This document shows, one piece after another, positions 8,621 to 31,774 of a stretch of DNA of 64,000 nucleotides; position 1 is the stretch's first letter; each line of letters opens with the position of its first letter. The notes below the pieces were generated by a model. That model had not been told where the DNA came from. It saw only the letters and a list, made by a program, of their open reading frames with translations, and searched no databases. The DNA is from an uncultured Acidobacteriota bacterium (GTDB lineage Bacteria; Acidobacteriota; UBA6911): NCBI GenBank assembly GCA_963827655.1, contig CAWHCF010000038.1, positions 1-64,000 of the forward strand, given 5' to 3'. The position numbers were made by a program, and so were the translations under genes.

Positions 8621-10871
8621 ATGGTTGACCTCTTGACCAGATTGAATCCCGAACAGCGCCGGGCCGTGGAACACGGTCAGGGGCCGGCTCTGGTCCTGGC
8701 CGGTGCGGGAAGTGGTAAAACCCGCGTCATCGCGTTTCGAATCGCTTATTTAATGCAGAACAGCGCGTCGCGTCCGGAAAATATCCTGGCGGTCACTTTT
8801 ACCAACAAAGCCTCTCAGGAAATGCGCGAACGGATTCATTTGCTGATGGGCCCACACCGGCCCTCGGAACCCCTCATTTCCACGTTCCATTCACTCTGCG
8901 TTCGGATTCTACGACGGGAAATCCACCTGCTGGGCTATCGCAAGGATTTTTCGATTTACGACACGGACGATCAGAAGCAACTGATAAAGCAGATCATGGA
9001 AGATTCCGAACTGCGGGAGATCGACTTGTCTCAACGGGAGATACTGAGCCGGATCAGCTATGCCAAGAACCACAATATTCTCCCCGAGCGCTATGCCGAA
9101 TATTTTCCGTCCGATAACTCTTCCGACATCGAGCGGCTGTACATCGCATACAACCGGCGGCTCCGCATGGCCAATGCGCTGGATTTTGACGATCTCCTCC
9201 TGAAGACGGTCGAGGTCATGGAGAAATATCCGGCCCGTGCGGGATCACTACAGCAACTGGTACCGCTACATTCTCGTCGACGAGTATCAGGACACGAATC
9301 GGCCGCAGTACGAACTGCTCCGCCTGCTTACCTCGCGCCACCCCAACCTTTTCGTGGTAGGAGACGAAGATCAGTCTATTTACAAGTTCCGGGGAGCGGA
9401 CATCAAAAACATCTTGAACTTCGAGCGCGACTTCCCCGGTACGCGAATCTTCAAATTGGAGCAGAATTATCGCTCGACGCAGAACATCCTGCGGGTTGCG
9501 GGCGCCGTTGTTGAAAACAACACCGAGCGAAAAGGGAAAACGTTGTGGACCGAAAACCACGCCGGAGACGTTATAACGTGCCGGCGATTCCGCTCCGGGC
9601 GCTCGGAGGCAGAGTGGGTGGCGTCCAGGATCCAGGAACTGCTGGACGAAAACGCCGACTACCATGTCGCCGTCTTGTATCGAGCCAATTTTCTATCACG
9701 CAATTTTGAAGAGGTGTTGATGGCGCGCGGGTTACCTTTTACGGTGCTGGGCGGCGTGGCCTTCTTCCAGCGCATGGAGGTCAAGGACATGCTGGCTTAC
9801 CTCCGGGTTATATTCAATCCCGAGGACGATGTCGCCCTGCTGCGGATCATCAATACTCCTCCGCGTGGAATTGGAACCACCACCGTCGATGCGCTGACCC
9901 AGGCGGCGATCCAGAGACAGGTGCCCGTTCTTCATGTGCTGCAGGAGTTCGCTCGGAACCAGACAATACCGGGCCGTGCGGCGCGCCCGCTCAACCGTTT
10001 CATCGAGATGCTCGAGCGCTGGATGTCCAGGCGGGATAGCGCGAGTCTGGCCGAACTGCTCGACGAGATCGTGAAGGACATCGACTACCGAGCGATGCTG
10101 GAAAAGCACGAGTCTCCCGCAGAAGCCGAAAGTCGCATGTCCAATATCGCGGAGCTGGCGGGCGCGGCCGCCGAGTCGGAGCAGAGAGGGGAAACGGTAT
10201 TCGAGTTTCTGGATCGCGCGTCCCTTTCGTCGGAGTTGGACCGTTACGACCCGAACGCCAGAACCGTGCTGATGACTCTTCACAGCGCAAAAGGACTGGA
10301 GTTCGACGCCGTCTTTCTGGCTGGTCTGGAAGAGGGGCTGTTCCCTCACGCGCAGTCGATGGCTCCGCAGGATCTGGAGGAAGAGCGACGGCTCTGCTAC
10401 GTTGGAATCACCCGAGCCCGCCACAAATTATTTCTGACCTGGACTCCTTTCCGTCGTAACTTCGGCCCCGACGCTGCCTTGCCCTCGCCTCCCTCTCGCT
10501 TCTTCAGCGAGATGCCCCCGGAGCTGGTGGAAGGCATAGGTGAATCCTATGTGTACGACCAGCGGGAACAATACCTGTCGGAGGAAGAAACGCCCGGTGA
10601 CGGACGATCCTGGATCGAGCTGCTGAACGAGCAAATCGCGCGCACAGCACCATCCGGACGGGGAGGGCAGGCCCGTCACACAAGCGTCGAGTCAAGGCCC
10701 GCCTTCCCACCCTTGAAATCGGGTATGCGTGTCCGTCACGCTCAGTTCGGTGATGGGATCATACTGAATCGCGAACGTGTGGGAGACGACGTAAAGCTGA
10801 CCGTAACCTTCAGCAGGGTGGGAAAGAAGACCCTTCTCGAAAGATACGCAAAACTCCAGCCTCTTCGGTGA
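8621..10871 (+). CDS. pcrA: ATP-dependent DNA helicase PcrA/UvrD (one indel near 9237)
   Basis: LAGAGSGKT, TFTNKA, VDEYQDTN, VGDEDQSIY, LEQNYRST, HSAKGLEF, EERRLCYVGITRA and a C-terminal Tudor-like tail, split over two ORFs. Confidence 0.92.
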
Positions 10872-16850: not shown

Positions 16851-19501
16851 TCAGAGCATCCATAACTCTGGTCGGAGTAGCTGCTTGACCTTATGCAGCA
16901 GGATGCGACCGATCATCTGGCGGCCAAAGTCGATGCGCGCGAAGGCCGTCATTCCAGGTCGCAGCAGGCCATCACTGTTCTCGATTATCAGCTCGACACG
17001 GTAGGTTCGCTGACCGTATTGGTCTTGTTCGCTCTCACCGCTCATCTTAGAGACCCGGCCCCGGAAGCGCCGATCGGGGAAAGAGGCAGTCTTCAGGCGC
17101 ACGGGATAACCGACCCGCACGTCACCGATCTGCCGCTCTGATACCTGAATGCGAACGAGCAAGCGGGTAGTGTCGGCGACGCGGCAGATTTCCTCGCCCT
17201 TCTGAAAGTATTGCCCGAGCATGCGCGGCAAATCTTCCCCGAAAACCGTGCCCTTCCGGGACGTCGTCAGCTCAAACTGCGCGCGTTTGCGCTGGAGCAG
17301 AATGCGACGCTGTTCAAGCGTGTCGAGTAGCGCCCGCGTGGAACGTAGCTCGCCTTCGAGATTCTCAACCTGTTGGGTCTCGGCACTGAAATCCGAGCGC
17401 GCCAGGTGCATTTCCGTCCCTATACTCGTGTGCTTCCGTCGATGCTCTACGAGGGCCGCTTCGAGCCGTTCGCGCGCGGCCTCCAGTTCAGCCGTGAGAG
17501 TCGAGGAACGCGTCTCGGCTGTGTCGAGCTCGCTGCGCGGCAGGAGGCCTTCACCGAAGAGTTGCCGGGCACGCCTGAGCTGAGCGTCGGATTCCCCGAG
17601 CTGCGCTCGGCGCAGCTCAACATCAGCTTGCAAGACGGCAATAGCGGCCGGGTAGGACGTTGCGGCTCTACTGAGCAGGTTATTCGATGCCGGCAAAGCA
17701 GTCGGTGAGAACGAGGCGGTTATCACCCGTGCCGTGTCTACATTCGACTCGGGAAGCCGGGGTTGGTTGATCTGACGCTGCTCGGCATCGATTTCTTCGT
17801 ACTCATACCGGCGCTGGCGCAGTTGTGCTTCGGCGCGGACAGTTAATTCCCCTCGCACGCGCAGCTCACCGAGCAACCGATCGTATTGGGCTTTGGCGCG
17901 CACCAGCTCGGATTGCACTTGCACGATCTGCTCATCAAGTTCGAGGTTGCCTAGCCGCCCCACTATTGAGCCGTCCACGACGAAGTCACCCGGCTGCGTG
18001 CGCAGCTCGACGAGCGTTGCGCTTTCAGGCGCGCGGATGATCGCCTCCTGACCCGGGAATGGCGATGAGGGTGCCGTAGCTTCCGACGGAAGCCTCCCAG
18101 GGCATCAGCAATGCGCCGATTGCCAGCAAGAAGATGGTTAGGGGCACGAGGTGTCGGCGCCACCGCGGTCGTTTCGTAGCACGTTCGCTTGTTTTTCCCC
18201 TTTCACTGCTCGCTGCTCCTTGATTATTAGTCTCCATGATGGCCTCCGATTTTGACGCAAGCTGCCGATTGACTACCATCCTCCAGAATTTGACAATCGT
18301 CGACGCTGTTGTAGTGATCATCTGCTCGAGCGGTCCGCGGATGAAAATGAGCCCCACTCCAGCGGTGAGCAGCAAGCCCAGGAGGTGAAGTGAATCGATC
18401 AGGTATCCGCCGACATAACAGATGAGGACGATGATCAGCCCCACCGTAAAGAGGGTAGAAAGAAACCCGAAGATGGCATACGTCGTGCGTTCGCGCCTGC
18501 TGTACTGCGCCGCTGCTTGCGTCGCGCTCGCCGGTAGACAACGCGCCGCCACAAGCCACGCCAGTAAGCCCGCGAGCGGGCCATTAAATTGGGCAGGCGC
18601 AGAGCCTGGCTTAGAAAGTAATAACCATCGAGTTTGATGAGCGGGTTCGCATTGAAGGCGACGTTCACGACACTGCCGAGAAAAAAGAGGAAAGCAAGCT
18701 CTGAGATGAGTGTGTGAGGCGCGACCGCAAACCAGGTGAGCAGCGCAGCGGTGCCGACGAGCAGCTGCCAGTAGACACCGGCCAGGATCACCCACAGCCG
18801 CCGCCGTACCTGCGGGATGAGGTGGAGGCCTGACACATTGCAATAGAGCGCGGGCAAGAAATAGAAGACCATCAGGACGCCAACCTCGGTCGAACGCCCT
18901 CCGAAGGCTTTGCAGGTCAACCCGTGCGCGAACTCGTGTGAGAAGACCACGAGGGTTCCGGCAAGGAATACGGCGACAAAGTGTTCGCGCAGCACGATAC
19001 GCGCCGTAGCTCGTCACTTCGGCCCAATCCCTGAGACGACAGCAGAAGCGCTAACAGCATCAGCAAAAGGGTGGTGACGACAAATCCCGGCGTCCAGACC
19101 CAGCGCAAGAGCGGAACCATCCGCGCGAAGAGGCGGTCCGGGTTGAAGAGCTTGAAACGGACGTAGAACTGACGGCCGTGGCCGATCTGGCTGGCCTGGC
19201 CTTTGGGTGCGCTCCCCGGCAAGAACGCCGATCTCATCCAGCTCGGGCCAGAAACTTGTGGAGTGCCGCAAGGGAGAGCCTGCCGCCATGCTTTTGCCTG
19301 AATTCGTCGCAGAGTGCCGTGGGAGCGAGAGACTCGCCGAGCAACTGCAATACACTAATGCTCGGTCGGATGTAACAGGACGTAGCGGCCGACGGCAGCC
19401 GAGCCGACGATGTAAACCAGTCGTTCGCCATCACGCTGCTCGGTGACCTCCACGTCGGAGGCGATCTGTGGCGGATAAGCGCAATAGTCGCCCTTAAACA
19501 T
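16851..19501 (-). CDS. Fused PqqD/RRE-like domain + site-2 (M50) Zn metalloprotease + HlyD-type periplasmic adaptor (several indels)
   Basis: [34 protein letters not shown]...ELDEIGVL N-domain; FNPDRLF; SHEFAHGLTCK.FGG...E.GV; NANPLIKLDGYY; then TM, coiled coil and RGRVSKMS...LRPGMTAFARIDFG; ORF 18025-19017 reads from the protease C-terminus into the adaptor N-terminus without a stop. Confidence 0.8.
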
Positions 19502-20759
19502 TGCCTGCTTCCTTGGGGCACAGGGGAGCGGGGTTAATGCCGGACACTCCTTTATCTCCCCGGTGGCTCTGCTCCCTTGCCGCGCCTCTGGCGCGAGCTT
19601 CCAGTTCAAGCGCTTCAGGCATGCGGTTAGTTTTTCTGAGCAGGCGCGCGTAATTCTCGAGACAGGTGATGATCTTGGGGTGACCCGGCTCGAGCGCTTG
19701 CTCGAAGATCAAGAGCGCCTGCTGATAAAGTGAGGCCGCCTCTTGATGCCTCCCTCTGAGATTTAAGAAGCACGGCCAGGTTATTAAGCGTCATGGCGAC
19801 GTCCGGGTGGGCAGGCCCAAGGAGCTTCTCCTTAATCGTGAGAGCTCGCCGGTAGAGCGCCTCGGCCTCTGAGCTTTCGCCCCTGGCCTGATGGAGCGCT
19901 GCCAGGTTGTTCAAGGTTGACGGCGATCTCGTAGTGCTCCGGGCCGAGAACGCGCTCGAAGGTAGCAAGCGCGCGCCGGTACAATGGCTCTGCTTCATCG
20001 TGCTTGCCTTGGCCATCCAAGAGGGCTGCCAATGCGGCAATATCGGCGGCGACGTCCAGATGATCCGGGCCAAGCGCCTTCTCCCGAATCTCCACGGAGC
20101 GCCGGGCAAAAGGCTCGCCCTCAGCATAGCGGCCGCGCGCGTGCTCGAGCCCGCCGAGGTTGTGGTAGATGGTCGCTGCTTGTTGATGATTAGAACCGAG
20201 AACCTTCTCGGTGATCGCCAATGCCCGCCGGTAGAGCTGCTCGGCGTCATCGAAGCGGCCCATGTACTTGTAGAGCACTGCCAGATTGTTGAGGACTGTC
20301 GATACTTCAAGATGCTCGGCGCCAAAGACTTTCTCGGCAAGCTCGAGCGACCGTCGAAAGAGGGCTTCTGCCTCTTGATAACGTCCTCGAGCGCGGTAGA
20401 TCCCGGCCAGGTTACGGAGCGACCGCACGTGGAGCTTCTGCACTGCGACTCTTTCTCCCGCCCCTTCTAGAATCCTGACCGAGCGCTGATAAAACTGCTG
20501 GGCCTTGGCGTATTCGCCCTGATCTTCGTAGGTTCTCGCCAGGCTGTTGAGCAGAGGGACGAGATGGAAGTGGTTTGGTCCGACTGCTCTCTCCAAGAGT
20601 CGCTGCGCCTGAAGGTATAAAGATTCGGCCTTCCGATGCTTGCCTTGAATGCGACAGGCAAGAGCGCGACTACGGAGATGGCGCACGACTTCTGCTGGAT
20701 TCAGATTCGGCGCCTTCTCCGCAGTCTTTGAGATTTGTCTGGAAGTTGTTCATCGACAT
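19494..20759 (-). CDS. TPR-only protein (42-aa repeats; indels)
   Basis: Repeats such as [36 protein letters not shown] across ORFs 19832-20686, 19627-20340 and 19494-19712; stop overlaps the next ATG. Confidence 0.8.
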
Positions 20760-20794
20760 CAACCACAAGTTGATGATCCTCCAGTTTTCAACCG

Positions 20795-20821
20795 GAAGAA
20801 CTGGTCGCTCGACCAGTCTTC
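20795..20821 (-). terminator. Stem-loop just downstream of the repeat precursor gene
   Basis: GAAGAACTGGTC-GCTC-GACCAGTCTTC inverted repeat; no clear U tract, so it may be a stabiliser or partial terminator. Confidence 0.45.
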
Positions 20822-20834
20822 AGTGAACGAAAAT

Positions 20835-21389
20835 AGCCGGGGGAGGTGGCTACGCCAGGGGGCGACCACCTCTTCCGACTCATCAATACTCAGTCGATCT
20901 CTGCGATGTCGTTCACGAGCATTTCGTTATGGTTCCAGGCAATGCCTGAGCGATCACTTCCTCCAACTCTTCGATACTCAATTCGATCTCGGCGTGTCGC
21001 TGACGAGCGTTTCGTTGTGGTTATAATGCCGGGAGCGATCACTTCCTCCAGCTCTTCGACACTCAATTCGATCTCTGCGATGTCGCTGACGAGCGTTTCG
21101 TTGTGGTTGGTAATGCCTGGAGCGATCACTTCCTCCAGCTCTTCGATGCTCAGTTCGATCTCTCGATGTCGCTGATAAGCGTCTCGTTGTGGTTCAAGTC
21201 AAGGCCTGGAGCGATCACTTCCTCCAGCTCTTCGACCCTCAGTTCAATCTCTCTGGTGTCGCTGATAAGCATCTCGTTGTGGTTCAAGGCAATGCCTGGA
21301 GCGATCACTTCCTCCAGCTCTTCGATGCTCAGTTCAATCTCAACTGCCATCACGTTTTCCTTCTCGTCTCTGTTAACCTGTGTATTCAT
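20835..21389 (-). CDS. Multi-unit (tandem core) peptide precursor; 3' end approximate because of indels
   Basis: AGGAG RBS; MNTQVNRDEKENVMAV then units EIELSIEELEEVIAPG-IAL-NHNEMLISDTR / -LDL-NHNETLISDIA / -IT-NHNETLVSDIA / -I?-NHNETLVSD.A / -IAW-NHNEMLVNDIA / EIxLSIDExEEVVAPG-VATSPG after correcting single-base indels. Confidence 0.75.
20853..21341 (-). repeat. Six tandem ~90-nt coding repeats
   Basis: gcgatcacttcctcc anchor at 21301, 21211, 21122, 21035 and 20950, with a variant gcgaccacctcttcc at 20862. Confidence 0.9.
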
Positions 21390-21930: not shown

Positions 21931-23136
21931 ATGCATGTGCGTCCGTTTCTGTGCTTCCTGGCGCTTGTTGCAGTCATCGGTTGCACCAGCTCCAGAGCGC
22001 TTCAGACCGATGGCTCCAAGTCCAAGTCCAAGTGGCCGGAACATCCCGATTTCAAGCCGACTCCCGAGCAGGGACCGATGCCCAAGAGCCTGCTGGTTGT
22101 CAAGCGCGCGGACATCAAGAGAGCCAAATACCCGGCAATTGATTTTCACTTCCATGCCCAACTTCCGAAAACTGAAGACTACGTCAAAATGATCGCCGTC
22201 ATGGATAAGGCCGGCGTCGGAGTCCTGTGCAACATGAACGGCGGTCTGTACAAGACCCTGGACAAGAATCTCGAGGTCGGCAAGCCTTACAAGGACCGTA
22301 TCATCCATTTCGCCCGGCCCGTATGGGAGGGCATCAACCAACCCGGCTGGTCGGAAAAAACCGCGGCCGAGCTGGAGCGCGCCTTCCAGGTCGGGGCGCA
22401 GGGGCTGAAAATCAACAAGGCACTGGGACTGGAACTGAAAAACACCGACGGGACCTACATTCATTGCGACGACCCGCGATTGGATCCACTCTGGAAAATG
22501 TGCGCCAAGCACAACAAGCCCGTCATGATTCATGTGAGCGACCCGATCGCCCGCTTCCTTCCGATCGGCCCCGACAACGAACGCTACGAGGCGGGAAACT
22601 GGCGCAGCGACCCCGACGGTAACTACCATCGAACCGGTCAACCCCACTATAGCGAGATCTGGAAACACCAGGAAAACATGGTAGCCAGGCACCCCAACAC
22701 ACGCTTCGTGCTGGCTCATGTCGGGAACATGCCGGAGGACCTGGAACGGGCCGGAAAACTACTCGACAGGTTCCCCAACGCCGACATGGAGCTGTCCGCC
22801 CGTTTTCAAGATCTCGGCCGCCAGCCCTATACCGCCCGGAAATGGCTTATCAAGTACCAGGATCGGGTGCTGTTCGGCACCGACGGCAGTCCCGACCGCG
22901 AGGTAGAGCAATTCTGGACACCACATTGGCGATTTCTGGAAAGCGACGACGAAGACTTCGATCATCCGGCCCAGATGCTTTCTTCCCGTGGCGCTCCGCT
23001 GCAGGGACGCTGGAGAATCTACGGGGTCTTCCTGCCCGACGAGGTGTTGAAAAAGATCTACTATGAGAACGCACTGAAGTATTTGCCTTCGGTGCGTGAC
23101 TCAATCAAGAAACAGCTTGGTGGCAGGTCTTCTTAG
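21931..23136 (+). CDS. Amidohydrolase family protein (lipoprotein-like signal)
   Basis: IDFHFH, GAQGLKI, PVMIHVSDP, FVLAH, RVLFGTD, KKIYYENA. Confidence 0.85.
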   Translation: MHVRPFLCFLALVAVIGCTSSRALQTDGSKSKSKWPEHPDFKPTPEQGPMPKSLLVVKRADIKRAKYPAIDFHFHAQLPKTEDYVKMIAVMDKAGVGVLCNMNGGLYKTLDKNLEVGKPYKDRIIHFARPVWEGINQPGWSEKTAAELERAFQVGAQGLKINKALGLELKNTDGTYIHCDDPRLDPLWKMCAKHNKPVMIHVSDPIARFLPIGPDNERYEAGNWRSDPDGNYHRTGQPHYSEIWKHQENMVARHPNTRFVLAHVGNMPEDLERAGKLLDRFPNADMELSARFQDLGRQPYTARKWLIKYQDRVLFGTDGSPDREVEQFWTPHWRFLESDDEDFDHPAQMLSSRGAPLQGRWRIYGVFLPDEVLKKIYYENALKYLPSVRDSIKKQLGGRSS

Positions 23137-23177
23137 GCGTTTCTTAGTGTCTTTGAGTCTTAGTGGTATTTATAGTT

Positions 23178-24623
23178 ATGAGAGTGCTGCTGGTCTCCTG
23201 CTATGAGCTGGGTCATCAGCCCCTGGCCCTCGCCGGCCCGGCTGCGCACATTCTTGCCGAAACTCCTGCGGCAGTCGAATGCCTTGATCTTGCGGTAGAA
23301 CCCTTTGATGCCGGCAAGGTCGGACGCGCGGATATCGTGGGTATTTCTGTACCTATGCATACGGCTCTCAGGCTGGGCGTCAGAGCTGCTGCCAGGGTGC
23401 GTTCGTTGAATCCCACGTGCCATGTCTGTTTCTACGGACTCTATGCGTCCCTTAATAGAGATTACCTGTTGGGGCACGTTGCCGACAGCGTCATAGGAGG
23501 TGAGTACGAGCGCCCTTTGATCAATCTGGTCAAGTCATTGTCAAACGGCGCGGGTGTGACCGTCGATCTGGAAGGGGTTTCGACTCCGGCACAGCAGTCC
23601 GGTCCGTTTCTGGGTCGTCAGGTCTTCCTGCCTCCGACGCGAAGCCTTTTGCCTCCGCTGGAAAAATACGCCCGGCTGGACACGGGCGAAGGCTTCAAAC
23701 TCGTGGGATATGTGGAGGCCACCCGCGGCTGTCTTCACACCTGCCTGCATTGTCCGATCACGCCCGTTTATGAAGGGCGTCTTCGTGTCATCAAGGGTGA
23801 CATTCTCCGAAGGGATATAGCCGCCCTGGTCCAGATGGGCGCGCAGCACATCACCTTTGGTGATCCCGACTTCCTCAACGCGATCACTCACTCGCTTCGC
23901 GTCGCAAGACAGCTTCATGAAGACTTTCCCGACCTCACTTTCGACATGACCACGAAAGTGGAACATATCGTAAAACATCCGACCTTGTTCGAGGCGCTGC
24001 GCGAGCTCGGTTGCATTTTCGTCGTGAGTGCGGTCGAGTCGCTCAACGATCGAATTCTTCAATACCTGGAAAAGGGACATACGCGGGACGACGTCGTCGC
24101 AGCCCTGGAAATTACCCGTCAGGCGGGTATTGCCCTTCGACCGTCTCTAGTCTCATTCACTCCCTGGACCACCCTGGAGGATTACATCGACGTCCTGGAC
24201 TTCGTAGAAGAACACGGACTGATTTACCATGTCGATCCGGTGCAGTACTCGATCCGGCTCCTGGTTCCGCCCGGGTCGAGTCTGCTCGATGCCCCTCAAA
24301 TGAAACCTTTCCTGGGAGTGCTCAACCGGGAAACGTTCTCCTACGAATGGAAGCATCCCGATCCGCGGATGGACGCCCTCCAGGAGGCAGTCGGCGCGAT
24401 TGCCGAAGCGGCGACGCGCAGCAAGGAAGATCCGGCGTCGACTTTCGATAAGATCAGGGCTCTGGCGCTCTCGCTGAACGGGAACAGAAGTTTCTCCCCG
24501 CCGGCGGTGCGCAAGATTCCGAGAGCGGCTCGTCCAGCACAGCTGACAGAATCATGGTTCTGCTGAGCGGAACCGACGAGGGACCAGTTGGTCCCAGTGA
24601 CCGGGTTTCCCACGCAGTTCTGA
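23178..24623 (+). CDS. CUAEP-tail radical SAM selenoprotein (UGA at 24564-24566 read as Sec)
   Basis: MRVLLVSCYELGHQP start, CLHTCLHC cluster motif, ends TESWFC-UGA-AEPTRDQLVPVTGFPTQF*. Confidence 0.85.
24580..24595 (+). promoter_or_regulatory. Candidate bacterial SECIS hairpin
   Basis: GGGACC-AGUU-GGUCCC perfect stem starting 13 nt after the UGA. Confidence 0.6.
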
Positions 24624-27819: not shown

Positions 27820-30800
27820 TCAAAGTTCGCGCACGTCTTTGGAAGAAAGCAATGTGTTCCGCGGGTTATCCTCACGAATCGAGTCCGCCAGGGACCGCAC
27901 CACCGCCTGCGCGCGCGCGCGCAGGGCATCCCGGACGGAGGCGTCTCTGCGCCGGCCGGCCAGCTCCGCGGCGGCCTTGAGGATTTTCCACTCGATCATC
28001 GGACAAGGAAACTGCTCGATCAACCGCAGCGCAGCATCATATTCCCGCGCCGCATTCTCGAGCTGCTCTTCCAGGACGGCGATGTCACCTTGCAGCTTGT
28101 GCGCCCAGACCCTGCGCTTGGGGTTTTTGCCTTCGAGCGAGAGAGCGGCATGCTGGCCGGCCTGTTTGAGATCGCCCTGTGTGATCCAGTAGCTCGCGAG
28201 CTCTGCCTGAAGGCGCGGCTGGTAGACCCAGCGGAACCAAAAGTCCGTGCTGTGGAGTTGTTCGCCTTGCCGGAGGTGCTCCAGGGCGCGTGTCGGCTCG
28301 CCTAGCGCCAGATGGTCCCGCGCCGCGTTAATGTGGGAGTTGCACTCGCCTTCTACATCGCCGAATTCCCGGGCCATTTGAGCCGCTTCTGTGTCCAGCC
28401 GCAGCGCTGCCTCCAGGTCCTGCGCCTCCCCAAGGAGCCACGCCTGCGTATTGCCGAGACGGGGCGGCCAACGCCGGTTGCCGACGCGTTCTGCCAGGCT
28501 CGTAGCTTCTCTGAGCACGTCCAGCGCGTCGGAGATCCGGCCGCGGTTGCCGAGAACTCTGCCTTTGTGAAAGAGCGCCCTCAGTCTGTCGTCGCAGGCA
28601 CCACCCAGCTCCTGTGCCCTGGAGTCAGCCCAGTCCAGTGCACGCTCCGCGTCATCGTATTGCGACAGCATGGCATGAATACTCCCCCGGAAAGAGACGG
28701 CGGCGATGGTTAGCAAAGGCGGTCCGCTCCGGCGCAATACAGGAATGGCCCGGTCAAACAATGTTTCGGCTTCGGCAATCTGACCGGCGCACCACCGGGT
28801 ACAAGCTAAAATAAACCCACTCGCGGCCATGGCGGTGTCGGACCCCACAAGCCGGGCGAGTTCGAACGCACGCTCCCCTTCTTTCTGAGCTTCCGCCACA
28901 AGCTTCTTGTAGAAGAAAAGCACGGCCGCCTTGCTGCAGATAGCCTTGATTTGCACGTCGCGGTCTGCCGACTCGCCGGCCGCGCGCTCGGCGAGATCGA
29001 AAGCGGCAATCGCATCGTCGTACCGCGACATGTCCTGATAAAGCGGCCCCATTTCGAGAGCGGCTGCCAGGACACGCGTATGCCGCTCAGACCCCTTCAA
29101 TCTTTCCGCATCGGCGCCGGCGCGCTGGGAAAGCGCGACGGCTTCAGGATAGGCATAAACGCGGGCGGCGTTCCGGGCTGCTTGAAGGAAGTGATCCGAA
29201 GAGCGGGCAAAGTCCCGGGCGTCGTGGAACAAAAGTGCCAGTTCCGACGCCACCTCGGCGCTTCGCGCCGCGTAAAACTCCATCAGAGCGTGCGCGACGG
29301 CGCCGCTGAGCCTGGCCTTGCGCGTCGTCGCCAGCGAGGCCTGCAGAGCATTTTGATAGAGTACGTGCACGAACGAGTAGCGCAGGGTCAACGTCGAGTC
29401 GGGAAACTCCCGTTCGCCGATTAATCGCACTAGGCCGTGCAATCGTTCCAGCGCTTCCAGCCGCTCCTCAACCTCCGCCGGGTCGATCGCCAGAGCCTTG
29501 GCTAAGATGGCCGAGTCGAACTCGTGCCCCTGCACAGCAGCGGCGGCAGCCAGGCGGCGAGCCGGTTCGTCGAGCTGATCGATCTCTCTCTCGATCATGC
29601 TGCGCACCGACTCGGGCATTTCACCCTTGATCTTCGGCAAGGGCCGTGCCAGGGTCCACCGGCCATCCACCTGGGCGATGACTTCGCGATCCCGGAGGTA
29701 GCGTACAAGATCGACCATGAAGAGCGCGTTACCCTCGGTCGTGCCATGGATAGAAATCGCCAGATCGGCCGGAAAAGAATGCTCGGGGAAGTGGAGCCCC
29801 AGGTATTGTTCGACGTCCCCTGAGCTGAGGAAGTTGAGCGCAAGTTCGCGGCAGGCTCCGTGCGCCTGCAGCTCCTGCCGCACTTGAAGGAATGGATGCT
29901 TGGCCAACCGCAGGTCAGAAGGGCGATATGTCGCGACGATCAACACCCGCATCGCTGCGATGCGGCTTCCGGCATAGGCGATCAGATCTACCGTGGAAAC
30001 ATCAGCCCAATGCATGTTGTCAAAGAAGAGCACAAGCGGCTGGAGCCGGCTGACTTCCTCGAAGAACGCCAGGAGTTCACGTTTCAGGCGCGCCTGCGAC
30101 GCCGCTTTGACGTCGGCAAGCACAAGGGAGTCGGATGAATCGTGCGCGGAGAGAGGGACGATCTGGACATACCAGGTCGGCGCCACCAGCTTCAGGAGCC
30201 GCGTCACCGGGTCGCCGCCGCTGCGAATCAGGCTCTCGAGAGCTTCGAGTAGCGGCAGGTAAGCCTCGCTTCCCGCCAGCCGCTCCGAGCACCGCCCCTT
30301 TGCAACGTAACAGGCTCCGCTCTGGTCGCGCAGTTGGATCGAGAAATCCTCGATCAGCGTGCTCTTGCCGATGCCGGCCTCTCCGGCCACGCAAAGTACG
30401 AGCCCCCTGCCCTCGGATGCTGACTGGAACGCAGCTCCCAGTTCGGCCAATTCCTTCTTGCGCCCCACCGTGAGTCGCCGGACGGGGCCGCGCGCCGGCG
30501 CCTCTGTTCGCGGTAAGACTACTTGTCCGGCCAGTTGTGCCAGGCCGCGATACACTTCCCCGGCGGAAGGGCGCAGCCGCGAATCTCTTTCCAACATGCG
30601 CAGGATCAGGTCTTCCGATTCTCGAGATATCTCGGGCCTGAGCCGCGAGGGCGGCAATGGTTTCTCTGACAGGATCGCGTTCAAGACGCCGAGGTTCGAA
30701 TCCGCCTCGAAGGGATGACGGCCGGCGGCCAGCTCGTAGAGCAGAATGCCGAGAAAAAATATCGCTGGCTGGAGGCGCACTCTCTCCCAGGACCTGTTCG

Positions 30801-31354
30801 GGCGACATGTACCGAATCGTTCCCACGAGCGTTCCAGGAATGGTCGGGACCTCTGTGGCGGTCGCTGACGCGACATGGCTGCCGGCGGGAAGCACACGCG
30901 CCAAGCCGAAATCGAGGACCTTCACGTAGCCATCCTCGCGCACCATCACGTTTTCCGGCTTGATGTCGCGGTGCACGACGCCGGCGGCGTGTGCCACTGA
31001 CAGCGCTTTGGCCACCTCGTTGCCCAAACGCCAGACCTCGCGTAAAGGCAACCCTTCGGCGGCCAAGGCACGCAGGGTCCGGCCGTGCACCCATTCCATG
31101 ACGAGGAAAAACCCCGCTTCGGTTTCGCCGATGTCGTAGACGGTGACGATGTTGGGGTGATTCAGAGCGGAAGCGGCGCGCGCCTCTCTTTGGAATCGCT
31201 CGACGGAAACACGATCCTGCACCTTGTGCGCGGGCAGGAATTTCAGAGCGACCACGCGGCCAAGGCGCGTGTCCTCAGCCCCGTAAACCTCGCCCATGCC
31301 GCCCCGGCCCAGCTCGGACGTAATGCGGTAGTGGGATACAGTCCTGCCTATCAT
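27820..31354 (-). CDS. Ser/Thr protein kinase - AAA ATPase - TPR-like multidomain protein (frameshift in the A-run near 30755)
   Basis: LGRGGMGEVY, VALK, HRDIKPEN, DFGLA, GTIRYMSPEQ; TVGR..EL, GEAGIGKST; helical C-terminus. Confidence 0.88.
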
Positions 31355-31774
31355 CCTGGAGCCCTTAGAGGCCTGATAATAGCACATCTGGCCGTACCGA
31401 TCGCCGTCGCTGCAACGGGTTTTCGAGGGATACCCAGGCCGACAACCTGCGTTCGACTACCAGGATTTCGCAACAGCCTCGCCTTCGAGCGCGATTCTGA
31501 CATTATTATCTAGATGTCCAACCCGAATACATACTGGAGCTCATTCACGTCGCGTCCGATGAGCGAGCCGCAATCATTCTGCCCGAGACAGGTATCGTAG
31601 TCACATGCAAGCAACTCCGCGACCAGGTGACTGAAATGGCCGACGCGCTCGCGGCGCTCGGCATTCAAGAGGAGAGCGCATAGTAAAAACAAGCTGCGGT
31701 TTTGTCGCGCAGCCTCCATAGCCCCCTGGGATGAATCCCTGATGCTTCTGATATGGGTGTTATGTCAGCTGCGA

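Follow-up and report, generated by a model that had tools for sequence, protein, structure and literature searches.

A tag-and-core repeat precursor encoded with a TPR protein and an RRE/site-2-protease/HlyD fusion: a candidate daptide-related peptide processing and export unit in Acidobacteriota

Here we report a three-gene locus in a 64,000-nucleotide stretch of DNA from an uncultured Acidobacteriota bacterium, hereafter the window, which corresponds to positions 1-64000 of contig C38 of the source genome G000 (8.18 Mb, 53 contigs, 90.3% complete). From 21389 to 16851 on the minus strand, three co-oriented genes encode a repetitive peptide precursor, a protein composed solely of tetratricopeptide repeats (TPR), and a fusion of a RiPP (peptide made by ribosomes and modified after translation) recognition element (RRE), a site-2 protease and an HlyD-type adaptor. 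The fusion ATG at 19501 is overlapped by the TPR stop codon (19494-19496, sequence ATGTTTAA), and both this overlap and the three-gene layout, as described in an earlier note on this DNA, are confirmed by the window sequence. Approximately 18 single-base indels run through the precursor, TPR and fusion genes, all three of which are frameshifted, and their origin is weighed below.

The precursor gene (20820..21389, minus strand; from reading of the window and repeat alignment) encodes a short N-terminus followed by five cassettes, each made of a tag and a core (ELEEVIAP...NHNE), and a sixth, degenerate cassette. Its end at 20820 assumes removal of two bases that are absent from a related contig, the raw open reading frame (ORF) stopping at 21150, and an AGGAG sequence lies 7-8 nt upstream of the ATG at 21389. 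Tandem Repeats Finder delimits an array at 20879..21341 (minus strand) with a period of ~90 nt, 5.3 copies and 86% matches. The six repeat anchors, at 21323, 21233, 21144, 21057, 20972 and 20884, delimit units of 90, 89, 87, 85 and 88 nt, and the degenerate sixth unit is without NHNE. The window units read ...EIELSIEELEEVIAPGIALNHNEMLISD..., and in a motif search of the source genome ELEEVIAP...NHNE was found at this locus alone.

To describe the cassette we collected 156 units from 45 ORFs at 28 loci, using an extraction pattern that fixed Pro(-1) and the first N of the core and let core position 2 be H, S, N, Q or P; this position is H in all 156 units. The cassette comprises a 14-residue acidic tag, (V/I)(E/D)LxVEExExVIAP, and a core of the form G/A-xxx-NHNET followed by 3-9 variable residues. 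Conserved tag positions are L(-12) at 96%, E(-9) at 94%, E(-8) at 93%, E(-6) at 99%, V(-4) at 81%, I(-3) at 85% and A(-2) at 95%, with position -10 reading V/A, and in the core N stands at 98%, E at 98% and T at 71%. The residue after the tag Pro is G in 75 units and A in 35, and the spacer from this Pro to N measures four residues in 118 of the 156. Units are mostly 22, 25 or 28 residues long (~30 in the window), a precursor ORF holds 1-9 cassettes, and a locus has 1-4 such ORFs. In many cases the precursor stops 3-8 residues past NHNE, several precursors terminate in ...APGLPLI, and none has a membrane segment. The six-unit repeat of the earlier note stands, but its unit is a tag plus a core, so that each core carries its own putative docking tag.

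Relatives of the precursor are numerous and lack a curated family. A phmmer search with the first 79 residues of the window precursor against 1.84 billion cluster representatives found 239 related representatives at E <=0.001, including 78 at E <=1e-10, and the motif is present in 24 of the 25 relatives inspected, the remaining one (P0149) being an unrelated repeat protein. The top-scoring relative, P0001 (474 aa), has ~230 unrelated N-terminal residues ahead of seven cassettes, which points either to an artefact of gene calling or to a larger protein that bears tags. Comparison of the precursors with Pfam and NCBIfam gave only noise (RiPP_CPAC at 22 bits against a threshold of 60; daptide_123 at E 0.05), and the ESM Atlas held no usable match (TM <=0.27). 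No curated family fits the precursor, and public records leave the precursors unnamed.

The fusion gene (16851..19501, minus strand; defined by profiles and alignment) encodes 880 aa after removal of eight inserted bases and is spread over six frame pieces in the window. Its N-terminal RRE domain (19210..19501, minus strand; residues ~1-97) was recognized from the fold of an intact metagenomic orthologue, L015. Pfam and NCBIfam gave no significant match on the two N-terminal window pieces, and the PqqD match of Pfam is weak in another orthologue, L016 (E 0.04). An AlphaFold2 model of L015 residues 1-440, built from a 28-row alignment (predicted local distance difference test score, pLDDT, 82.5), has strands at residues 18-24, 27-34 and 39-43 and helices at 45-56, 60-71 and 77-88. 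VIA superpositions of this domain, which cover 83-87 residues, reach Z 10.5 to the lasso peptide RRE protein 6jx3_B (root-mean-square deviation 2.5 Å, 83 of 85 residues), 10.4 to TbiB1 (5v1v_A), 9.9 to TigE (8vpo) and 8.3 to PqqD (5sxy). Foldseek with the entire 440-residue model returned nothing at E <=0.001 (all E >0.02), with RRE proteins and site-2 proteases as top rows. As judged from the model, the N-terminal domain has the RRE/PqqD fold, so the PqqD-like domain suggested earlier is borne out by the fold of an intact orthologue, not by family profiles. In a complex prediction run without controls, the RRE (L015 residues 1-100, with alignment) and a 35-residue cassette scored 0.19 against a mark of 0.32, which weighs on binding in neither direction.

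The M50 intramembrane metalloprotease core (18200..19170, minus strand; motifs, profiles and fold) carries HEFAH at 18924-18938 and NPLIKLDG at 18624-18647, and the HExxH and NxxPxxxLDG motifs are invariant in 28 orthologues. The window piece scores 21 bits with Pfam Peptidase_M50, against a cutoff of 27.2 bits, and matches the daptide_HExxH profile NF041824 at 5e-37 (128 bits). Over profile positions 4-372 of 379, NF041824 aligns to intact fusions with E 4e-52 to 8e-55. These fusions also match, weakly, the YydH/LiaK profile NF058609 (E 1e-10 to 1e-12), so that the M50 protease proposed earlier groups with RiPP-type M50 enzymes. In the model, the protease core superimposes with VIA Z 7.8-8.4 on SpoIVFB, RseP and mjS2P.

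The C-terminal half (16854..18060, minus strand; profiles and model) consists of a membrane anchor and a complete periplasmic adaptor with lipoyl, long alpha-hairpin and beta-barrel parts. The window piece matches HlyD_D23 (7e-17) and HlyD_3 (7e-13); the scores for these families, 62 bits for HlyD_D23 and 50-57 bits for HlyD_3, exceed the cutoffs. In a model of the C-terminal 428 residues (pLDDT 87), an anchor helix is accompanied by strands of the lipoyl and barrel parts and by helices that are 67 and 86 residues long. Its Foldseek matches are EmrA (3e-19) and MacA (2e-17), in agreement with the membrane-fusion adaptor of the earlier reading. In public records the fusions are named 'efflux RND transporter periplasmic adaptor subunit' or 'putative peptide zinc metalloprotease', one orthologue carrying the name 'putative peptide zinc metalloprotease protein' from JGI.

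The TPR gene (19494..20759, minus strand; start at ATG 20759 or 20753) encodes, on read-through, a protein of ~420 aa with kinesin-light-chain-like TPR_10/TPR_12 repeats, as assigned by family profiles and by comparison of an orthologue with the PDB. Family search of the window protein gave TPR families exclusively (TPR_12 1e-56, TPR_10 1e-56), confirming it as a TPR-only protein, and no signal peptide was seen in it. The solved structures nearest to an orthologue are kinesin light chains (3nf1, 5oj8, 6fuz and 6swu; E 1e-46 to 1e-35), kinesin light chain 1 being the best at E 1e-46, and according to their titles several of the matched entries are complexes with short cargo peptides. The TPR grooves of kinesin light chains bind acidic motifs; the protein studied here differs from them in being bacterial, stand-alone and TPR-only. 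The analogy with RRNPP receptors drawn in the earlier note was not sustained, since RNPP_C scores 19.2 bits against a cutoff of 26.5 and, among solved structures, kinesin light chains come closest. RRNPP systems likewise encode a TPR protein beside a small peptide gene, but the TPR proteins of the window and of L015 are without a helix-turn-helix or phosphatase output domain, and the peptides here are multi-cassette and paired with an RRE-protease.

The same gene set recurs in other genomes. Scanning metagenomes with the M50 piece yielded five loci (L014-L018) that are 72-80% identical in that piece. Intact triads occur in L015, L016 and L018, with precursors of 62-267 aa, TPR proteins of 288-407 aa and fusions of 842-888 aa; L017, a contig of 2.2 kb, holds TPR and fusion genes, and in L014, where the upstream flank spans 1.5 kb, the fusion stands alone. 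A genome scan limited to one genome per species, from which the best 80 of 434 stretches encoding a relative were kept, yielded 79 loci, mostly from Blastocatellia and other Acidobacteriota metagenome-assembled genomes (MAGs) at 42-64% identity, together with a distant fusion clade (26-29% identity) from Planctomycetota, Eisenbacteria and others. The close clade comprises 63 loci, counted with four metagenome loci. NHNE cassettes lie upstream of the fusion in 30 of them, all with a TPR gene in between, which is directly upstream of the fusion in 29 and 2 kb away in one; four loci have a TPR gene and <1.1 kb of flank, 14 have too little flank to tell, and 15 with >=3 kb of flank have neither NHNE cassettes nor a TPR gene. 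The co-localisation of precursors with TPR and fusion genes expected in the earlier note is thus seen among the 45 informative loci, where 30 have both TPR and NHNE, 15 have neither and none has only one of the two.

A looser motif search added only one locus, L093, from a Pirellulaceae MAG, with a single-cassette NHNET gene (...KLEPRIAPKLSANHNETIV...) and a TPR protein 58% identical to that of L015 next to a fusion that is only 27% identical; the TPR/NHNET pairing therefore holds even beside a divergent fusion. We built a maximum-likelihood tree from 78 fusion proteins, leaving out rows shorter than 700 aa. One clade of 34 rows (support 99) contains 28 informative rows, all of which have a TPR gene and none of which is an orphan. 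The window falls together with L015 and L045, and the orphan fusions form clades of 7 and 13. In the host-phylum sample the precursor was found in one of 401 genomes, the source genome itself, and is therefore rare among those searched. A search of public sequencing runs gave a best run containing 19% of the sampled words from the source, and none reached half.

Several side observations concern these relatives. Orphan loci L020, L021, L023, L050-L064, L074 and L075 are also without a sigma factor or kinase gene, and in L020 and L021 an LCAT-like lipase gene overlaps the fusion stop codon. The fusion proteins of L016, a metagenome contig, and of L038, a MAG labelled 'uncultured Heliomicrobium', are identical; several Heliobacteriaceae-labelled MAGs sit within Blastocatellia clades, and their labels look wrong. 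The source genome also encodes an intact fusion paralogue (C29:6846-9329, minus strand; 825-828 aa) that is 44% identical in the M50 piece and belongs to the distant multi-phylum clade. M50 matches of this type occur in 33 of 36 same-family genomes at 38-49% identity in the M50 piece, most of them in open frames of 750-930 aa, and a search for LExRIAP-type tags beside the C29 paralogue found no tagged peptide gene.

Sequence comparison shows homology of the tag and of the RRE-protease half to the daptide leader/MpaP pair, with the protease falling outside the NF041824 equivalog. According to the daptide preprint (10.1101/2023.03.08.531785), this class was found through an RRE fused N-terminally to an intramembrane site-2 protease, its precursors share the leader motif ELExMEAP, and its tag normally recruits tailoring enzymes via RRE domains. 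Mutations there targeted E(-8), L(-7), D(-6), P(-5), M(-4), E(-3) and P(-1) of MpaA and showed two of these, L(-7) and M(-4), to be essential; the motif ELDPMEAP ends at -1. The tag consensus over the 156 units, E-[LAM]-E-x-V-I-A-P, fits both this motif and its residue numbering as given there: E-L-E-x-V-I-A-P is identical to ELExMEAP at -8, -7, -6, -2 and -1 and hydrophobic at -4. Both systems fuse the RRE N-terminally to an M50 protease, and both have several precursors per locus.

The differences from daptides are substantial. The cores described here are short, polar NHNET sequences, whereas daptide cores are hydrophobic helices with an invariant C-terminal Thr, and the precursors here end in varied residues. 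The tag is repeated ahead of every core in one polypeptide, the protease has a C-terminal HlyD adaptor, and a TPR partner is present. No cluster of DapB (DUF-RRE), oxidoreductase, aminotransferase and methyltransferase genes recurs in at least four of the 28 flanks, and genes of the DapB, DapC, DapD or DapM type were found in none of them. The hosts here are Acidobacteriota and Planctomycetota; Actinomycetota and Bacillota are those named for daptides in the preprint. The earlier remark that no named class was recognised holds insofar as no curated precursor family or paper was found for it, but the system has known relatives in the daptide leader/MpaP pair. In the literature searched, we found no description of NHNET precursors, M50-HlyD RiPP fusions or tandem-repeat precursors of Acidobacteria; the daptide paper alone joined an RRE to a site-2 protease, and its supplementary RRE lists may include HlyD-fused or repeat-tagged variants. 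A 2025 daptide preprint makes no mention of Acidobacteria, HlyD or tetratricopeptide.

Other known systems share single aspects of this layout. The YydH/LiaK enzymes are likewise M50 proteases dedicated to a ribosomal peptide, but the fusions score 39-47 bits against the 225-bit cutoff of NF058609, their flanks contain no conserved radical SAM epimerase, and the RRE and adaptor are extra. Cyanobactin precursors of the PatE type hold several cores, each after its own protease recognition sequence, behind one long N-terminal leader, and are processed by the subtilisin-like PatA/PatG with macrocyclisation. The present precursors resemble them in having several cores per polypeptide, each with its own recognition sequence, and differ in repeating the RRE tag in full and in being paired with an intramembrane metalloprotease. 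For double-glycine bacteriocins, peptidase-containing ABC transporters and an HlyD partner cut the leader and export the product. Leader cutting and export would similarly be combined here in one machine with an HlyD-type adaptor, but with neither a C39 domain nor an ABC ATPase and with the M50 protease fused to the adaptor itself.

Clustering of the genes in the flanks placed a TPR gene at all 28 NHNE loci and identified two further recurring neighbours, a ~900-aa Ser/Thr kinase with TPRs and an extracytoplasmic function (ECF) sigma factor of family PF07638. By tblastn, the ECF sigma factor gene is found at 16, the kinase gene at 19 and either of them at 20 of the 28 loci, and neither at any of 14 orphan loci, a pattern suggesting a link between a signalling circuit and the peptide products or their synthesis. 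The window encodes, at 27820-31387, a kinase domain 50% identical to the kinase flanking NHNE loci elsewhere. The absence of a tailoring enzyme pointed out earlier was upheld for the flanks, where no family beyond TPR, kinase and sigma factor occurs in at least four of the 28. Pump or TolC-type channel genes are likewise not recurrent in the flanks, the carrier genomes not having been searched for unlinked partners.

The immediate neighbours in the window, encoding a DUF6807 protein, a GFO/IDH/MocA oxidoreductase, an amidohydrolase and a radical SAM protein, do not recur at related loci. Divergent from the precursor lie an Amidohydro_2 gene (21931-23136, plus strand) and then the radical SAM gene (23163-24566, plus strand; CxxxCxxC, PF04055 at 1e-12), and no recurrence of this pair was seen at related loci. 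Between 16500 and 21950, a promoter scan returned three promoter-like sites, all of them plus-strand, where 1.5 were expected, and a terminator scan eight terminator-like sites against 5.0 expected, none sensibly placed. An 8-mer search of upstream regions revealed a GGTGAGAGCGAAAG-like word 47-137 nt ahead of the precursor start in 8-9 related loci (L016, L018, L025, L027, L029, L030, L038 and L047), which may be a promoter or leader element; the window is without it.

We propose that the locus encodes a unit for leader-guided processing and export of peptides, a relative of the daptide leader/MpaP pair with a new layout, and we give this proposal about an even chance. Beyond the folds, motifs and gene order observed above, the steps of binding, cutting, export and TPR action would proceed as follows. 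The RRE, facing the cytoplasm in the fusion, would bind the tag of each cassette. Since the tag equates with the daptide motif and ends at the same Pro, the protease is predicted by homology to cut after ...IAP, and one polypeptide would yield several related peptides of 22-30 residues, or, should the trailing tag be removed, shorter NHNET peptides. Their release may be coupled by the adaptor half to a TolC-type channel, with an energy source that is unlinked or unknown. The TPR protein, presumably cytoplasmic, probably escorts the acidic precursor, or may help to present the NHNET cores.

Several observations weigh against this proposal. The cut site is placed by daptide analogy only, and intact fusions reach 178-187 bits with NF041824, under its 300-bit cutoff. 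Fifteen closely related fusions have no NHNE precursor or TPR gene nearby, and in four of five orphan genomes the precursor query had no match at any place, the fifth having one hit elsewhere, so the fusion does not depend on an NHNET substrate. Across the flanks of the 28 loci, no conserved gene encodes a transporter, an ATPase or an outer-membrane protein, which leaves the inner-membrane route unexplained, and the window contains no ECF sigma gene within 15 kb.

Two other explanations of what the cassettes are deserve mention. They may be true RiPP cores, in which NHNET is modified by enzymes encoded elsewhere or self-cleaves at Asn before the protease removes the tags; this would not exclude the processing and export proposed above, and we regard it as unlikely. 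The near-invariant core N and E (each at 98%), set beside hypervariable neighbours, are typical of a modification or recognition site, tags of the daptide type usually serve to bring in tailoring enzymes (as stated in the daptide preprint), and the radical SAM gene of the window lies 1.8 kb upstream on the opposite strand. Set against this, no enzyme family besides the TPR protein, kinase and sigma factor reaches four of the 28 flanks, the radical SAM and amidohydrolase genes of the window are absent from the recurring flank clusters, and the sole extra, RRE-independent partner is a TPR protein without a catalytic domain. Alternatively, the repeat protein may be a cytoplasmic regulatory substrate whose site-2 proteolysis controls the ECF sigma/kinase pair in the manner of anti-sigma factors. 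Site-2 proteases classically act in sigma-factor activation, SpoIVFB and RseP are among the nearest solved folds of the protease core, and ECF sigma or Ser/Thr kinase genes flank 20 of the 28 loci; yet the window and the other eight loci have neither gene nearby, the precursors are without a membrane segment, 1-9 cassettes in 1-4 genes per locus would be odd for a regulator, and the protease carries a complete secretion adaptor in the same polypeptide. We therefore hold a regulatory substrate to be very improbable.

A separate question is whether the copy in this genome is functional, since its indels may be consensus errors of the assembly or real decay. Alignment of nucleotide sequences by MAFFT with four intact orthologues placed seven of the eight insertions in the fusion gene (~19354, 19247, 19032, 18996, 18541, 18519 and 18054), the eighth (~19202, in a variable linker) being placed by frame bookkeeping; paralogue-guided tblastn was too distant for frame mapping. 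Three further insertions lie in the TPR gene (~20731, 19914 and 19755), the precursor units have at least five one-base deficits, and the precursor tail has two extra bases (~20858 and 20830) relative to a related contig. All 11 indels of the TPR and fusion genes are +1 insertions. The corrected fusion frame runs through 880 codons with no stop, is 58-66% identical to the four intact orthologues (58-83% among themselves) and keeps 363 of the 403 columns invariant in them. Short-read soil-metagenome contigs 90-97% alike have one base fewer at 12 listed places that coincide with the breaks, and 29 of the 36 listed substitutions in the corrected TPR and fusion frames fall at third codon positions, in a listing that covers 40 of 184 differences. 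Essential genes of the same assembly (C8:77700-86155 and C29:121378-123721; frame analysis) are also split: rpoB into frames of 1161 and 392 aa, rpoC into 573 and 828 and a valS-like gene into 647 and 302, with ileS whole. The source assembly thus carries indel errors genome-wide, and because the read-through is stop-free, relatives lack the bases and essential genes are split as well, consensus error is, in our judgement, the probable origin of the indels.

The opposing explanation, a dead and decaying copy from which nothing is made here while the family functions elsewhere, draws on the concentration of the indels: some 18 fall within 4.5 kb (~4 per kb), whereas the four flanking genes (~5 kb) have none and four sampled essential genes have ~0.2 per kb, the sampled background being about one break per 4 kb. 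Also unfavourable to consensus error are the repeat-unit indels, which are deficits and not insertions, and a low-depth contig 99% alike that lacks the base at 17237, where the window frame is fine; the latter indicates that single low-depth contigs are unreliable. In a scan for phase changes of GC content at third codon positions (GC3), the bin of the locus is in the top 3%, with 9 changes against a mean of 4.55 (50 of 1610 bins are as high). No orthologue was found in 60 relatives of the source genome (best M50 identity 49%), as for an accessory locus, and the window is without the usual ECF/kinase neighbours. Natural decay would nevertheless bring larger deletions and stop codons, which is difficult to reconcile with the stop-free fusion, the retained invariant columns, the uniform insertions and the third-position excess, and with frameshifted essential genes in the same assembly; we consider decay fairly unlikely. 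The GC3 scan is weak as a test for error hot spots, because the top bins, on C22, are open in many frames.

Further breaks and anomalies were noted in the same assembly. In the window, a uvrD/pcrA-type helicase gene (8621-10871, plus strand) is split into two overlapping frames, one matching positions 1-209 of the UvrD-helicase profile and the next 206-271 plus UvrD_C. A UvrD fragment shares 69% identity with a MAG labelled Acidobacteria gp18, in line with an Acidobacteriota host. At 27820-31387 (minus strand), the Ser/Thr kinase domain is cut at profile position 182 of 263 and overlaps a 1025-aa frame with AAA_16 and TPRs; from their sequences the two are probably one kinase-STAND-TPR gene broken by a frameshift. 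The densest GC3 phase changes of the genome, 13-18 per 5 kb against the mean of 4.55, are in C22:1-25000, where ORFs are open in many frames and the composition is unlike the rest of the genome.

The leader-guided processing and export unit proposed here would extend the only described RRE-guided intramembrane leader peptidase, MpaP of the daptides, to a much wider family in soil bacteria, with a logic that differs from that of daptides in its repeated tags, its lack of tailoring enzymes, its protease-adaptor fusion without a visible pump and its TPR partner. Three features are particular to this family: a tag ahead of each core, the invariant NHNET of the cores and a TPR protein that follows these cores across protease clades. 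A more far-reaching possibility, which we hold to be speculative and rather unlikely as a whole, is that these loci define a new ribosomal peptide class in Acidobacteriota and Planctomycetota, in which every core has its tag, a pump-less RRE/site-2-protease/HlyD machine exports the NHNET family, a kinesin-light-chain-like TPR protein acts as a cassette-specific escort, and the peptides act outside the cell as signals to which the flanking Ser/Thr kinases and ECF sigma factors respond in an autoinduction loop. For genome annotation, the finding concerns fusions that carry generic public names and precursors that carry none, and for the study of RREs it offers a clean, testable case of one such domain handling several tags on one chain. 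If its products are exported, the system would provide a compact route from one gene to many related peptides. It would then also be a candidate for peptide signalling or antibiotic production in the Acidobacteriota, whose peptide chemistry has, to our knowledge, received little attention.

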